A stretch of 64,000 nt of DNA, from contig JBQCGH010000127.1 of the NCBI GenBank assembly GCA_051955835.1, positions 4,590-68,589 of the forward strand, in the 5' to 3' direction. Source of the stretch: Gemmatimonadales bacterium (lineage in GTDB: Bacteria > Gemmatimonadota > Gemmatimonadetes > Gemmatimonadales > GWC2-71-9). Made by a program: the position numbers and the translations under genes. The notes below the pieces were generated by a model that was not told where the DNA came from, made no database searches, and saw only the letters and a list, made by a program, of their open reading frames with translations. Position 1 is the first letter of the stretch. Each line of letters starts with the position of its first letter. Shown in pieces: positions 4,168 to 11,309 of this stretch.

Positions 4168-4923
4168 TCACGCGCTTCGGCAGGTGTCGACCAAGTGCTC
4201 CATCGACGCCGTCCGGTCGGCCGGGGCGCGGGCGAGCGCGCGCGCAATCGCCTGGTCGATGACGGCCGGGACGTCCGGATTGAGGCGCCTCGCGGAGGGA
4301 ATCGGCGCGCGGAGGATCCGGGTGATCGTCTCGTTGAGCGAGGGACCGACGTACGGCGGCTCGCCGGTCAGCATCTCGTAGAGCACGCAGCCCAGACTGT
4401 ACACATCCGTCCGAGCGTCCAGGTCGGGTTCTTCGCGGAGCTGCTCGGGGCTCATGTAGTAGACGGTGCCCACGACGACGCCCGTAGAGGTGAGCTTCTG
4501 GGAATCGGCGGCCCCGATGGCGCGCGCCAGGCCGAAGTCCGCCACCGTGGCGCCCTCCGACGTGAGGAGCAGGTTCTCGGGCTTCACGTCGCGGTGCAGC
4601 ACGCCCCGGTGGTGCGCGTAGGCGAGCCCGGCGGCCACGTCGCGCAGAACGGCCAGTGCCTCCCCGAGCGGCAGGCGTCCGTCGCGCTGCAGGCGCAGGT
4701 GGAGCGACTCGCCCTCCACGTACGGCATGACGTAATACAGCACGCCCTCGCCGCTCCCGGTGTCGAGCAGAGGCACGATCCGCGGGTGCGTCATGCCCCG
4801 CACGATCTCGATCTCGCGCCGAAAGCGCGCCGCGCCCAGGGCGGAGGCGAGCTCCGGCGCCATGACCTTCACCGCGACCCGACGTTGCTGCTCCCGATCG
4901 TCGGCGAGATAGACGGTCGCCAT
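4168..4923 (-). CDS. Stand-alone Ser/Thr kinase catalytic domain (no sensor or TM region); the true start is probably upstream of the first ATG
   Basis: VAVKVM, HRDVKPENLLL, DFGLA and SPEQ motifs are intact. The first ATG (4923) falls inside the G-loop (..IARGG-M-ATVYLA). The in-frame upstream sequence TLEEVAGAIGDRYALVREIARGG matches the N-termini of the other kinases here. Confidence 0.8.
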   Translation of the reverse strand: MATVYLADDREQQRRVAVKVMAPELASALGAARFRREIEIVRGMTHPRIVPLLDTGSGEGVLYYVMPYVEGESLHLRLQRDGRLPLGEALAVLRDVAAGLAYAHHRGVLHRDVKPENLLLTSEGATVADFGLARAIGAADSQKLTSTGVVVGTVYYMSPEQLREEPDLDARTDVYSLGCVLYEMLTGEPPYVGPSLNETITRILRAPIPSARRLNPDVPAVIDQAIARALARAPADRTASMEHLVDTCRSA

Positions 4924-4993
4924 GCCGCCGCGGGCGATCTCCCGGACGAGCGCGTAGCGGTCACCGATGGCCCCGGCGACCTCCTCGAGGGTT

Positions 4994-5818
4994 CTAGACG
5001 TACGACTCCCGAAGCATCGCGGCCGCGGCCTCGTCCAGCCGGTCGGCCCAGCGGAGCTGGTCGAACAGCTGGAGCACCTCGGCCTCGGTCAGCCGCTGCT
5101 GCCGCGCGCCAGGGATGTCGTACACCAGCCGTCCGCGGTGCATCACCAGCACGCGGTCGCCGAGCTGCGCGGCCTGGGCCAGCGAGTGGGTGACCATCAG
5201 CGTGGTGAGGCCCGCGTCCTGGACGACATCCTGGGTGAGGCGGATGACCTGCTCGGCGCTGCGTGGGTCGAGCGCGGCGGTGTGCTCGTCGAGCAGCAGC
5301 AGCGAGGGACGCACGAGGGTGGCCATGAGGAGCGTGAGCGCCTGGCGCTGACCACCGGAGAGCTGGCCGATGGGCGTGTCCATCCGCTCCTCCAGACCCA
5401 TGCCCAGCTTAGCCACCGCGTCGCGCAGGGGCCGCCGGCGGGCGGCGGCGAGGGCGCGCCCCAGCCGACGGGGCTCGCCGCGACGGTCCGCGAGGGCCAG
5501 GTTCTCGGCGACGCTCAGGTCGGCGGCGGTGCCGGCGAACGGGTTCTGGAATACCCGGCCCATGTGGCGGGCGCGGCGCTGCTCGGGCCAGTCGGTGACG
5601 TCCACCTCGTCGAGCCACACGCGGCCCCCGATCAGCGGCAGGCTGCCGGCGATGGCCCCGAGCAGGCTCGACTTGCCCGAGCCGTTCGTCCCGAGCACCA
5701 GGGTGAAGCTGCCGCGGTCCAGCTCGAGGTCGACGTTGTCGAGCGCCCGCACCTCGTTCGCCGTGCCCGGATGGAATACCTGAGAGGCGCCGAACAGGCG
5801 GAGCGCCGGCTTAGACAT
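4994..5818 (-). CDS. ABC transporter ATP-binding protein (COG1101-like, uncharacterised ABC system)
   Basis: Walker A GTNGSGKSS, signature LSGGQRQ, Walker B LLLLDE. 8-nt overlap with the permease gene. Confidence 0.9.
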   Translation of the reverse strand: MSKPALRLFGASQVFHPGTANEVRALDNVDLELDRGSFTLVLGTNGSGKSSLLGAIAGSLPLIGGRVWLDEVDVTDWPEQRRARHMGRVFQNPFAGTAADLSVAENLALADRRGEPRRLGRALAAARRRPLRDAVAKLGMGLEERMDTPIGQLSGGQRQALTLLMATLVRPSLLLLDEHTAALDPRSAEQVIRLTQDVVQDAGLTTLMVTHSLAQAAQLGDRVLVMHRGRLVYDIPGARQQRLTEAEVLQLFDQLRWADRLDEAAAAMLRESYV

Positions 5819-9041: not shown

Positions 9042-9047
9042 ATCTCC

Positions 9048-11309
9048 CTAGCCGAGTCTCAGGTTTTCCAGCAGTGCGCCGTACCGCGGATCGGGCCAGA
9101 GGGGCTCCGCCCACGGTGCGACCTTCATGAACAGGAGGCCGGGTTCCCGGTTGGTGAGGCCCCGGTGGAGCTGCTCGAACGCGGGGTCCTTGTTGCCCAG
9201 CGCGGTGAAGACCATGGCGGAGAGCAGCGAGAGCCTGATCTCGCCGGCGAGCTTGGTCTCGAGCTCCCACATGAGCCCCTCGGCCTCGTCGCGTTTGCCG
9301 GCGGACGCGCAGGCATAGGCCAGGAGCAGCTTTTTCACCGTGCGGAGGCCGGGACGCTCCATCTCACGGCGAATGTCCTCGATCGCCTTGTCGAACGCGC
9401 CCTTCGCCACCCAGGCCCACCAGAGCACCATTCGGGCGCCGACGAATCCGGCGTCCATGGCAAGCGCCTTCTGGAGCTCCTCGATGGCCTCGTCGTAGCG
9501 GCGGGCGAAGTAGAGGACCCAGCCGACGGCCCGGGTCACCGGCACCGCGAGCGGGTCGAGCTGCTGGGCCCGCTTGATCTCGGCGAGGGCCTCGTCGTGA
9601 CGGCCGAGGGCCGCCAGATACTCGGCGTACCACTCGTGTGCCATCACGTAACTGGTCTTGAGATCGAGGGCGCGACGGAACTCCCGCTCGGCGCCGGTCC
9701 AGTCGAGGTCGCCGAGCCAGCGGGCGTAGGCCAGCGAGGTATGCGCTTCCGCCAGCGTGTCGTCCATGTCCAGCGCCTTGAGCGCCATCGTCTTGGCCGA
9801 GTTGAGATGCTCGGCCGGCGGCTTGGAGCTGAAGCCGATGCTGAGGAGCTCGTAGGCGTCGGCCATGCCGGCGTAGGCGACCGCGTAGCTCGGGTCGCGC
9901 GCAATGGCCTGCTGGTAGTAGTCGATGCCCTTGAGCACGTCCGCTTCGGCCCACTTGTTGGCGTGGAAGCGGCCGAGCAGGTAGAGGTTGTATGCCTCGG
10001 CATCGCCGGTGGCCTTCTTCTCGACCCTCTGCTTTTCCTCGGGGGAGAGGGCCACGGAGAGCGCGCCAGTGATCTGCTGGGCCACCTCGCTCTGCACCTC
10101 GAACACGTCGCTCAGCTGGCGGTCGAAGGTGTCGCCCCACAGGTGCTTTTCGGTCTTGGGATCGACCAGGTGGGCCACGATGCGCACCCGCGGGCCGGCC
10201 TTCCGCACGCTTCCCTCGAGCACCGCCCCGACGCCGAGCTCCTCGGCGATGGCGGCGATCTTCTTGGTGGTCTTCTTGTACTGCATGCTGCTGGTGCGGG
10301 AGATGACCTTGAGCGCGCTGATCTTGGAAAGTTGCGCGATGATGTCGTCGGTGATGCCGTCGCTGAAGTACTCGTTCTCCGGGTCGGCGCTCATGTTCTC
10401 GAACGGCAGCACCGCCACCGACTTCGCCTCGACGGCCTCGCGCACCATGGCGGAGGCCGCGCCGACGGCGATGCCCACGGTGGCCGAGACGCCGAGCGCG
10501 TCGGAGAACTGGGCGGCGGACTTGAAGCGATCGGCCGGGAGATTGGCCATCGCCTTGCGCACCGCCGCGTCCACGGCCTCGGGTACCAGCTCGCGGAACG
10601 CGCGGGCCGACGGCACCGGCGAGCTCAGCCGGTTGGCGATCACGGCCGTGAGCGTCGAGCCCCGGAACGGCGGCTCACCCACCAGCATCTCGAAGAGCAC
10701 GCAGCCGAGGCTGTAGATGTCCGTGCGGCCGTCGACGTACTGGCTGCCGTCGATCTGCTCGGGACTCATGTAGGCGGGGGTCCCGACCACGTGTCCGGTG
10801 GCCGTCGTCGAATCACCGGTGCCCACCGCGCGCGCGATCCCGAAGTCGGCGACGACGGCATGCCCGGCATCGAGCAGGATGTTGGCCGGCTTGATGTCGC
10901 GGTGGACGACGTTGGCCCCGTGCGCATAGCTCAGCGCGTCGGACACCTCGCGGGCGATCTGGAGCGCGTCGTGGACCGGAAGCTGGCGCTCGCGGTCGAG
11001 CCGCTGCCGGAGCGTCTCGCCCTCGATGTAGGGCCTGACGTAGTAGACGAGCCCCTCGACCTCATCGGAGTCGTAGAGCGGCAGGATGTGCGGGTGGTGC
11101 AGCCGGGCCGCGATCTGGATCTCGCGGAGGAAGCGGGACGGCCCGACGTCGGTGGCGATATCGGGGCGGAGCAGCTTGAGCGCGACCGCGCGATCGTACT
11201 TGAGATCGTGCGCCAGATACACCCTGGCCATGCCACCCTGCCCCAGCTCGCGCTTGAGCTGGTACCGGCCGGCAACGGCCTCACTGAGGCGGTCGAAACT
11301 GGTGGCCAT
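9048..11309 (-). CDS. Ser/Thr protein kinase with TolB-N/CsgG-like module and C-terminal TPR repeats
   Basis: GQGGMARVYLA, ALKLL, HRDIKPANILL, DFGIA. Then VAVLPFENMSADPENEYFSDGITDDIIAQL, followed by multiple TPR-like A..Y..G..Y..A...F..AL..DP repeats. Confidence 0.9.
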   Translation of the reverse strand: MATSFDRLSEAVAGRYQLKRELGQGGMARVYLAHDLKYDRAVALKLLRPDIATDVGPSRFLREIQIAARLHHPHILPLYDSDEVEGLVYYVRPYIEGETLRQRLDRERQLPVHDALQIAREVSDALSYAHGANVVHRDIKPANILLDAGHAVVADFGIARAVGTGDSTTATGHVVGTPAYMSPEQIDGSQYVDGRTDIYSLGCVLFEMLVGEPPFRGSTLTAVIANRLSSPVPSARAFRELVPEAVDAAVRKAMANLPADRFKSAAQFSDALGVSATVGIAVGAASAMVREAVEAKSVAVLPFENMSADPENEYFSDGITDDIIAQLSKISALKVISRTSSMQYKKTTKKIAAIAEELGVGAVLEGSVRKAGPRVRIVAHLVDPKTEKHLWGDTFDRQLSDVFEVQSEVAQQITGALSVALSPEEKQRVEKKATGDAEAYNLYLLGRFHANKWAEADVLKGIDYYQQAIARDPSYAVAYAGMADAYELLSIGFSSKPPAEHLNSAKTMALKALDMDDTLAEAHTSLAYARWLGDLDWTGAEREFRRALDLKTSYVMAHEWYAEYLAALGRHDEALAEIKRAQQLDPLAVPVTRAVGWVLYFARRYDEAIEELQKALAMDAGFVGARMVLWWAWVAKGAFDKAIEDIRREMERPGLRTVKKLLLAYACASAGKRDEAEGLMWELETKLAGEIRLSLLSAMVFTALGNKDPAFEQLHRGLTNREPGLLFMKVAPWAEPLWPDPRYGALLENLRLG

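Follow-up and report, generated by a model that had tools for sequence, protein, structure and literature searches.

A gene encoded inside an ATP-binding cassette (ABC) importer operon was analyzed in a stretch of 64,000 nt from a Gemmatimonadales bacterium (contig JBQCGH010000127.1, positions 4,590 to 68,589), here called the window. The protein encoded by this gene, STAS-X, consists of an N-terminal STAS domain and a larger second domain, X. Comparison of gene neighbourhoods showed that TrpXYZ-type ABC importers include a distinct subfamily with STAS-X as a conserved fourth component, its gene lying between those for the substrate-binding protein (SBP) and the permease across phyla. One clade of Gemmatimonadales keeps STAS-X selectively beside two orthologous Hanks-type kinase genes, even where the ABC genes have been lost. 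The N-terminal domain was shown to be a STAS domain like that of SpoIIAA, with the canonical Ser of the phospho-site retained, and structure prediction showed the fold modelled for the X domain to be like those of alpha-acetolactate decarboxylase (ALDC) and DUF1907. The ALDC-like fold may open an enzymatic or metabolite-sensing role for STAS-X.

Separate accessory proteins that regulate ABC importers post-translationally are represented by a handful of cases, and MlaB is, to our knowledge, the only STAS example among ABC accessory proteins. The phosphorylation of MlaB was left open in the study of its complex (PMC7367683). The STAS-X family, which forms about 700 clusters at an identity level of 50% and reaches at least five phyla, provides a natural system in which a STAS subunit is encoded inside the operon of an SBP-dependent importer, and the pairing of this subunit with dedicated Ser/Thr kinases in one clade is a configuration suited for testing phospho-control of an ABC transporter. 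The decarboxylase-like fold suggests a link between transport and metabolism and places the ALDC/DUF1907 enzyme fold in a new context. The carriers include the cultured species Schlesneria paludicola and Planctomicrobium piriforme, with loci from metagenome-assembled genomes (MAGs) assigned to them.

Gene neighbourhoods and distribution of STAS-X

A total of 80 species-representative loci from GTDB genomes, together with further contigs, were scanned by tblastn with the proteins of the window, and the denominators given below are the evaluable loci. Loci with STAS-X below 45% identity to that of the window were assigned to a distant clade, while those with at least 45% identity, all from Gemmatimonadales or Gemmatimonadota, formed the clade of the window. 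The distant clade included Planctomycetota (among them Schlesneria, Planctomicrobium and Brocadiaceae), Acidobacteriota, Sumerlaeota and four loci of Gemmatimonadota. One further homologue of this clade, P0358, labelled Candidatus Binatia, was counted by sequence and not by neighbourhood.

The SBP gene was located upstream of STAS-X in 23/23 loci of the distant clade, and the permease and ATPase genes were located downstream in 23/23 and 19/20 loci, respectively. The corresponding counts in the clade of the window were 37/49, 37/47 and 36/46. An earlier reading of the window, made from its sequence alone, had tied the 418-aa protein to this type of importer, and the association was borne out by the homologues of all phyla sampled. 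An all-against-all comparison of the open reading frames (ORFs) from the distant-clade loci identified SBP, permease and ATPase as the only conserved neighbours. Two of the loci (L085 and L087), which were independently called and annotated with Pfam, displayed the order tandem SBP–STAS-X–BPD_transp_2–ABC_tran, and the STAS-X and permease genes overlapped by 4 nt in both of them as well as in L001.

The kinase genes were distributed differently. An orthologue of the TPR kinase was located upstream of STAS-X in 39/42 loci of the clade of the window but in 0/22 of the distant clade, and an orthologue of the short kinase was located downstream in 44/45 and 0/18 loci, respectively. The linkage to flanking Hanks kinases that the sequence-only reading had proposed was therefore confirmed for the clade of the window and did not hold for the distant clade. 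Since this linkage is lineage-specific, Hanks phosphorylation cannot be the general mechanism of STAS-X.

The commonest arrangement in the clade of the window, detected in 26 of the 37 fully evaluable species-level genomes, was a six-gene block of TPR kinase–SBP–STAS-X–permease–ATPase–short kinase. In a neighbour-joining tree the kinase-bracketed clade was monophyletic, and its sister group consisted of the kinase-free Gemmatimonad copies L054, L068 and L083. The ABC genes had been lost or displaced at least three times in this clade (in L004/L013/L036, in L043, and in L039/L016/L024/L023/L006/L045), with TPR kinase, STAS-X and short kinase still adjacent, and partial losses of the ABC genes were found in L030/L037 and L007. 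About a quarter of the loci of the clade kept kinase–STAS-X–kinase without the ABC genes, and in these loci STAS-X is more than a transporter gate. Two MAGs carried a kinase-linked and a kinase-free STAS-X paralogue, namely L039 with L068 (CAVVHO01) and L014 with L083 (JBOHSC01). In L039 the kinase-linked copy had no ABC genes beside it. In both MAGs the other paralogue was part of a kinase-free SBP–STAS-X–permease–ATPase operon.

In L051, L055 and L057 the tblastn matches of STAS-X, and in L055 also those of SBP and ATPase, were split into two adjacent pieces, which suggests frameshifts caused by assembly errors or present in pseudogenes.

An exhaustive search with the X domain detected 698 representatives of 50%-identity clusters, 292 of them at E <= 1e-30. 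Nearly all members had about 400-445 aa with X at about 130-415, and the shorter ones were fragment-like. Given this fixed architecture, the STAS-X fusion is obligate. The family spans at least five phyla, and its annotations go no further than 'STAS domain-containing protein' or 'anti-anti-sigma factor', the latter label being probably misleading. No STAS-X homologue was present in the plasmid collection searched; permease matches there were weak, and the collection was used only for STAS-less control operons.

In the literature searched there was no paper joining STAS with acetolactate decarboxylase and none linking STAS to the PF04392/ABC_sub_bind/COG2984 type of ABC transporter. A STAS subunit of an ABC transporter (MlaB), Hanks phosphorylation of a STAS protein and a kinase-regulated ABC transporter are each already known singly. 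The fusion of STAS to an ALDC fold, its role as a fourth gene in SBP-dependent importers and its capture by a two-kinase module are apparently undescribed in the same literature.

Domains of STAS-X and of its importer

The assignment of a STAS domain to the N-terminus of the 418-aa protein, made in the sequence-only reading, passed the profile hidden Markov models (HMMs). Residues 14-93 matched Pfam STAS_2 (PF13466) with 47.5 bits at a cut-off of 29.2, the N-terminus matched Pfam STAS (PF01740) with 31.2 bits at a cut-off of 22.6, and the Pfam STAS match was found in 86/86 full-length homologues. In a PDB profile search with STAS-X, SpoIIAA, RsbV and related chains ranked first and MlaB-like chains were weaker (E = 6e-16 for SpoIIAA versus 1.4e-3 for the MlaB-like chains). 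Foldseek with the STAS part of the model matched SpoIIAA, RsbV, RsbS and MlaB with probability 1.0, target-normalised template modelling (TM) scores of 0.6-0.83 and root-mean-square deviations (rmsd) of 1.4-2 Å. As in SpoIIAA and RsbV, which matched residues 1-95 best in both sequence and structure, a Ser is present at the phospho-site (DSSG in SpoIIAA, SSAG or SSAA in STAS-X), and Ser55 (codon 7861-7863) aligned with the phosphorylated Ser of SpoIIAA in the HMM alignment (1th8/1auz). Unlike these proteins, STAS-X is fused to a 300-aa ALDC-fold domain and encoded in an ABC operon, and the kinases linked to it, if any, are of the Hanks type.

S54 and S55 were conserved at 90% or more in both clades, including the kinase-free ones. 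This conservation is compatible with phospho-regulation and is not evidence for action of the flanking Hanks kinases; because clades without kinases conserve Ser55 to the same degree, its use as evidence for Hanks phosphorylation was rejected. Thr51 and several surface residues were specific to the kinase-linked clade, and we regard them as a lead only. The match of STAS-X to TIGR00377 (34.7 bits) was below the cut-off of 53.45. No GHKL anti-sigma kinase, PP2C phosphatase or sigma factor was detected as a conserved neighbour in 27 distant loci, nor in the Pfam-annotated loci.

The X part, about 300-320 residues of STAS-X, had no match in Pfam or NCBIfam. Among 87 members analyzed with Pfam at E <= 5 it remained without a match, including AAL_decarboxy (PF03306) and DUF1907 (PF08925), and PDB profile searches with family alignments gave no significant match for X and no ALDC chain at E <= 10. 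Alignment of the X domain with an ALDC alignment by hhalign was not significant (probability 0.75 on the 0-100 scale of HH-suite, i.e. <1%; E = 0.075). A first model of full-length STAS-X was of moderate quality (predicted local distance difference test, pLDDT, 78) and its PDB matches were swamped by STAS chains; the sole non-STAS match was a weak one to human C11orf54/DUF1907 (1xcr; E = 5.3e-4, TM 0.33/0.41). After a second homologue search, seeded with distant members of the family, 86 full-length homologues of both clades were aligned to residues 104-418 of the protein of the window. With this deeper two-clade alignment the X domain was modelled alone by AlphaFold2 (AF2), giving a pLDDT of 91 and a predicted TM score (pTM) of 0.90. 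When this model was compared with the PDB by Foldseek, the top 12 matches were all alpha-acetolactate decarboxylases (entries 5yho, 1xv2, 6j92, 6inb, 5xne, 6j3d, 4bt2 and 4bt3), with E = 5.4e-6 to 7.4e-4, probability 1.0 and target-normalised TM scores of 0.55-0.68. The next PDB match after the ALDCs was noise (probability 0.05).

ALDC and C11orf54 are structurally related Zn enzymes with an HxH…H triad that decarboxylate beta-keto acids (PMC12337341, PMC12435205, PMC9090609). In B. subtilis numbering, ALDC combines a three-His Zn site with catalytic Glu62, Arg142 and Glu251 (PMC9090609). H352, H354, H388, D392, R394, E196, D216 and E280 of the X domain were invariant in 87 sequences of both clades, and E314 was also listed among the invariant residues. 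The HxH lies in GHFHAAVFSY (codons 6970-6972 for H352 and 6964-6966 for H354; H388 at 6862-6864). Besides the overall fold, which its model shares with ALDC (AlsD/BudA, PF03306) and with the beta-keto-L-gulonate decarboxylase C11orf54/DUF1907, the X domain resembles ALDC in having an HxH on a beta-strand followed by an invariant His and an invariant Asp. The best local hhalign segment, a weak match, placed G195-E196 opposite the LDGE motif of ALDC that holds the active-site Glu62, while Arg142 and Glu251 of ALDC had no assigned counterpart in X. Based on this model and the conserved residues, a metal or active site of the His3 type in the X domain is putative. The X domain differs from ALDC in being about 60-80 residues larger, with a helix inserted before the third His, and ALDCs are stand-alone enzymes encoded outside transporter operons, with no STAS fusion. 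The Zn ligands of C11orf54/DUF1907 are H266/H268/H278, and the X domain has no membership in its Pfam family PF08925.

The importer type proposed in the sequence-only reading was corroborated by the Pfam matches of all three ABC proteins (PF04392, BPD_transp_2 and ABC_tran). Characterised TrpXYZ is a three-gene operon (PMC9382623), and solved SBPs of the PF04392 family bind L-Trp, L-Tyr or L-Phe (PMC10443332). The STAS-X operons share with TrpXYZ the three families (PF04392 SBP, COG4120 permease and COG1101 ATPase) and their order, but they have a fourth gene, a different ATPase tail and an SBP far below the TrpX equivalog cut-off (141.7 bits against NF041285, cut-off 390). The solved structures closest to the SBP of the window were 3lkv, 3lft and 6hni. 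In STAS-X operons of Planctomycetota the SBP was a tandem PF04392 fusion of about 655 aa (5958-7937 in L085, 6035-7999 in L087 and similar in many of the loci L060-L082) or was present in two copies, while Gemmatimonadales had a single SBP.

The STAS-X-linked ATPases from Gemmatimonadota to Planctomycetota were all 270-275 aa long and ended in …LDE[ST]AAxML.R.Y[VLI]; the tail of the ATPase in the window (4994-5040) reads ...LDEAAAAMLRESYV. Seven STAS-X-less loci (L088-L094, from Bartonella, Brevibacillus, Salinivibrio, P. aeruginosa, Variovorax, S. meliloti and Collinsella) were used as controls. Six of the seven had the order SBP–permease–ATPase with no gene between SBP and permease, and the Bartonella locus had permease–ATPase only. 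The six annotated control ATPases were 264 aa long and ended in …VRGE.L.DD.LLLG, and that of Brevibacillus, which ends in …ARGGEAFSEDRYILA, likewise had no tail motif of the STAS-X type. None of 78 plasmid-borne ATPase relatives aligned past query residue 264. MlaF has a C-terminal extension that holds MlaB (PMC7367683), and by analogy the tail of the STAS-X-linked ATPases is a candidate docking site for the STAS domain.

Proposed mechanism and alternative explanations

With a probability of about 45%, we favour a composite model in which the STAS domain docks on the ATPase, the ALDC-fold domain binds or converts a metabolite, and the kinases found in one clade switch the STAS domain. The helical face of the STAS domain with Ser55 would dock on the ATPase as MlaB does on MlaF, the candidate site being the C-terminal tail …LDE[ST]AAxML.R.YV. 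The ALDC-fold domain, as modelled, may bind and possibly convert a small cytoplasmic metabolite at its putative His3 metal site, which would tie import to what becomes of the imported compound or to how much of it is present. In the kinase-linked clade, the kinases would phosphorylate STAS, either on Ser55 or on Thr51, which is specific to that clade, and its partner binding would be switched in this way; such a layer would add an extracytoplasmic signal input. In genomes with ABC-less loci, the action of STAS-X may be directed in trans at a paralogous operon that has no kinases, or at the X domain. More tentatively, STAS-X could represent a new class of accessory subunit, in which a partner-switching STAS domain and an ALDC-fold metallo-domain in one polypeptide directly couple import to catalysis or sensing of a cytoplasmic metabolite, as transport-coupled conversion or metabolite-gated import; in Gemmatimonadales it would have been captured as the dedicated substrate or hub of two Hanks kinases, and the module would have become transporter-independent several times. 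We consider this wider proposition less likely than not.

The model draws on several known systems. In MlaB, Thr52 is at the interface with MlaF, and the T52E substitution weakens binding (PMC7367683). The E. coli MlaFEDB system resembles the STAS-X operons in that its ABC operon includes a gene for a cytoplasmic STAS protein. Via its helical face, MlaB binds the ATPase with Thr52 at the position of the phospho-site, as we infer for STAS-X, and the C-terminal extension of MlaF would correspond to the subfamily-specific tail of the STAS-X-linked ATPases. However, MlaB is a minimal STAS domain of about 97 aa without a second domain, and Mla is an MCE-type lipid transporter with MlaE and MlaD that is not SBP-dependent, while the STAS-X system has a BPD_transp_2 permease and a PF04392 SBP.

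Precedents for kinase control come from mycobacteria. In M. tuberculosis, the receptor Hanks kinase PknD phosphorylates the STAS protein Rv0516c (PMC1847690), and PknF, encoded in an operon with the ABC transporter Rv1747, regulates Rv1747 by phosphorylation (PMC3138270). Unlike STAS-X, Rv0516c is a stand-alone STAS protein with no transporter linkage, and Rv1747 is an exporter that is regulated via its own FHA domains, whereas no FHA domain was detected by Pfam in the seven proteins of the window. The STAS-X operon further differs in being flanked by two kinases and in its presumed target, a subunit of its own that combines STAS with an enzyme fold. Precedents of regulatory modules on ABC ATPases are the C2 domain of MetN, the TOBE domain of ModC and the regulatory domain of MalK (PMC7367683). 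In concept they are similar to the proposed role of STAS-X, since a cytoplasmic ligand-binding module feeds a metabolite level to the ATPase, but they are C-terminal ATPase domains of other folds, while STAS-X is a separate polypeptide.

Several observations weigh against the composite model. STAS–ATPase binding, metal binding, catalysis and phosphorylation are all inferred from sequence, model and analogy. The ABC-less kinase–STAS-X–kinase loci indicate that STAS-X can function without an adjacent transporter. The likeness of X to ALDC is at the level of the fold only, with query-normalised TM scores of 0.42-0.47 and an rmsd of about 6 Å, and by sequence X could be assigned to neither PF03306 nor PF08925. 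The third His follows the HxH at a distance of 34 residues, compared with 10-11 in ALDC, and Thr55 of ALDC is replaced by Ala in STAS-X. The ATPase tail differs from the controls in only about 6-10 residues and is partly homologous to them, which could be plain subfamily divergence, and the SSA(G/A) motif is as conserved in the kinase-free clades as in the kinase-linked one. Finally, the short kinase of the window has ACG at the ancestral start and, if translated from the ATG at 4923, lacks an intact Gly-rich loop.

The STAS domain with a Ser at the phospho-site, its conserved position inside the operon, the flanking kinases conserved in the clade and the precedents of MlaB and PknD would also agree with a simpler explanation, in which STAS-X is a non-catalytic, MlaB-like subunit that solely gates the ATPase, with the STAS Ser switched by Hanks phosphorylation and with periplasmic sensing by the TPR and TolB ectodomains. 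We judge this explanation unlikely, because most of the family is kinase-free (0/22 and 0/18), the TolB kinase is no conserved neighbour, some loci keep kinase–STAS-X–kinase without ABC genes, and the ALDC-fold domain with its invariant His, Asp and Glu residues, which makes up three quarters of the protein, would be left unexplained. Alternatively, STAS-X may be primarily an enzyme, such as a Zn/Mn decarboxylase or a related lyase/isomerase of the ALDC/DUF1907 superfamily, that acts on the imported compound, while STAS only tethers it or controls it allosterically and the transporter is not regulated by it. The structural matches were to ALDC only, the HxH…H…D/E residues are invariant across phyla, the chemistry of the superfamily is Zn-dependent beta-keto-acid decarboxylation, and a place beside an importer is typical for catabolic enzymes. 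Yet X has no sequence-level ALDC or DUF1907 membership, and the PF04392 ligands known so far, aromatic amino acids, are no substrates of the ALDC type. The obligate STAS fusion and the translationally coupled place between SBP and permease suggest a stoichiometric assembly, and the retention of two adjacent kinases would have no explanation; an enzyme beside an unregulated transporter thus appears doubtful.

It is still less probable that STAS-X is a partner-switching signalling protein whose true partners are the kinases or a sigma/anti-sigma pair, and which is placed in the ABC operon for co-expression only. By sequence, the nearest relatives of its STAS domain are indeed SpoIIAA and RsbV, the linkage to the kinases is tighter than that to the ABC genes in the Gemmatimonadales clade (44/45 versus 36-37 of 46-49), and ABC-less loci occur. 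But no neighbour of the GHKL, PP2C or sigma-factor type was conserved in the 27 distant loci, only the ABC trio was conserved beside STAS-X in those phyla, with no kinases there, and the TIGR00377 score was below its cut-off. The order SBP–STAS-X–permease with overlapping stop and start codons was also kept across phyla. An arrangement without functional meaning, in which the STAS gene is a passenger among the dense kinase genes of Gemmatimonadales, seems very improbable. Five Hanks kinase domains are encoded in the 64 kb, and for the TolB kinase and the fourth kinase the proximity is in fact incidental. However, orthologous kinases were kept at 39/42 and 44/45 loci although STAS-X has diverged to as little as 50% identity and the ABC genes have been rearranged repeatedly, and the four-gene operon is conserved across phyla, so that the synteny survey contradicts chance. 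Periplasmic signalling from the SBP to the TPR kinase was set aside as the main logic, since ABC-less loci without an SBP keep the TPR kinase.

Layout of the locus and the bracketing kinases

The features of the locus are compiled in Table 1. The ORFs and all of their overlaps and gaps were read in the sequence, in agreement with the order and junctions reported earlier for eight co-directional genes on the minus strand. The TPR kinase and SBP genes are separated by a 6-nt gap, SBP and STAS-X share a GTGA overlap, STAS-X and the permease are separated by a 10-nt gap in the window, and the permease and ATPase genes overlap by 8 nt. The TolB-propeller kinase and the further kinase share a TGATG overlap at 1385.

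Table 1. Coordinates of the features in and around the STAS-X locus of the window.
Feature	Coordinates	Strand	Evidence or remark
TPR receptor-type Hanks kinase, 753 aa	9048-11309	minus	Pkinase E = 5.8e-51, plus TPR families
SBP with signal peptide, PF04392 (TrpX-like)	8022-9041	minus	ABC_sub_bind E = 1.3e-50
STAS-X, 418 aa	6769-8025	minus	STAS residues 1-95, linker, X domain ~112-418
STAS domain of STAS-X, residues 1-93	7747-8025	minus	STAS_2 47.5 bits, motif VTYVSSAAT
X domain of STAS-X, residues ~112-418	6772-7692	minus	ALDC/DUF1907-like fold in the AF2 model
ABC permease, GTG start, ~10 hydrophobic segments	5811-6758	minus	BPD_transp_2 PF02653 E = 2.5e-16, hydropathy
ABC ATPase, 274 aa	4994-5818	minus	ABC_tran; subfamily-specific C-terminal tail
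Soluble Hanks kinase, kinase domain only	4168-5001	minus	Pkinase E = 6.4e-48; 251 aa from the ATG at 4923
Long GC-rich hairpin within the 107-nt spacer that follows the short kinase	4072-4120	minus	minimum free energy -55.1 kcal/mol, z = -3.28
TolB-propeller kinase	1385-4060	minus	Pkinase
Further (fourth) kinase	start at 1385, runs past the window edge	minus	Pkinase

Five Hanks kinase domains were detected in the window (597-1307, 3200-3937, 4171-4923 and 10500-11231 on the minus strand, 17028-17735 on the plus strand), four of them within the first 11.3 kb. In a region so dense in kinases, proximity by itself counts as weak evidence. The TolB-propeller kinase and the kinase downstream of it, which the sequence-only reading had counted as part of the arrangement, were rejected as members of the system: beside STAS-X, one weak match of 28% was found in 84 loci, and both genes lie beyond the hairpin spacer. 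This spacer (4061-4167) folds into a hairpin whose stability was matched by 0 of 200 shuffles and which has no T-tract; it probably marks the 3' boundary of the six-gene unit or is a regulatory element. The lack of conservation of the TolB kinase beside STAS-X, together with the hairpin spacer, therefore delimits the functional unit as six genes, from 11309 to 4168.

Both bracketing kinases displayed the full set of catalytic motifs in their translations (VAVK/VALK, HRDVKPEN/HRDIKPAN, DFG and YMSPEQ). The TPR kinase has a kinase domain at residues 1-275, a weakly hydrophobic segment at 271-289 (hydropathy 1.81) that is a candidate transmembrane helix, a TolB_N-like region and TPR repeats, and a function as a periplasmic sensor is plausible. 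Its C-terminal sensor half (9051-10439) was the most conserved element of the block, with 74-93% identity across L001-L058 compared with 50-65% for STAS-X and 58-73% for the short kinase, which suggests a conserved ligand or partner.

A spacer of 26-70 nt had been proposed upstream of the 251-aa kinase, but it is no true spacer, since the kinase coding sequence (LEEVAGAIGDRYALVREIARGG) extends in frame upstream of this ORF and the ancestral start overlaps the ATPase stop. In the closest orthologues (L001 at 12996 and L005 at 6520) the ATG of the short kinase overlaps the stop codon of the ATPase by 8 nt. The start of the orthologues lies within …TATGTCTAG, where the window reads …TACGTCTAG, so that codon 5001..4999 is ACG in place of the ancestral ATG. 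In the ATPase frame this change, TAT to TAC, is synonymous (Tyr). The only in-frame ATG, GTG or TTG left in the short kinase of the window (4923) lies inside the Gly-rich loop GxGxxG, and the kinase may be crippled. The ACG could be a consensus error of the MAG, a rare non-canonical start or a sign of real gene decay.

A scan of 900-12000 for sigma-70 promoters and intrinsic terminators found none, but it was based on E. coli rules and is uninformative for a genome like this one (the GC content of the window is 70%). The intergenic region 11310-11762 (about 450 nt) probably carries the promoter of the six-gene block. The divergent neighbour of the block beyond this region (11763-13208, plus strand) encodes a secreted protein with three DUF3011 repeats (E = 5e-74), and the next gene after it (13401-16259, plus strand) encodes a PAS–GGDEF–EAL protein.

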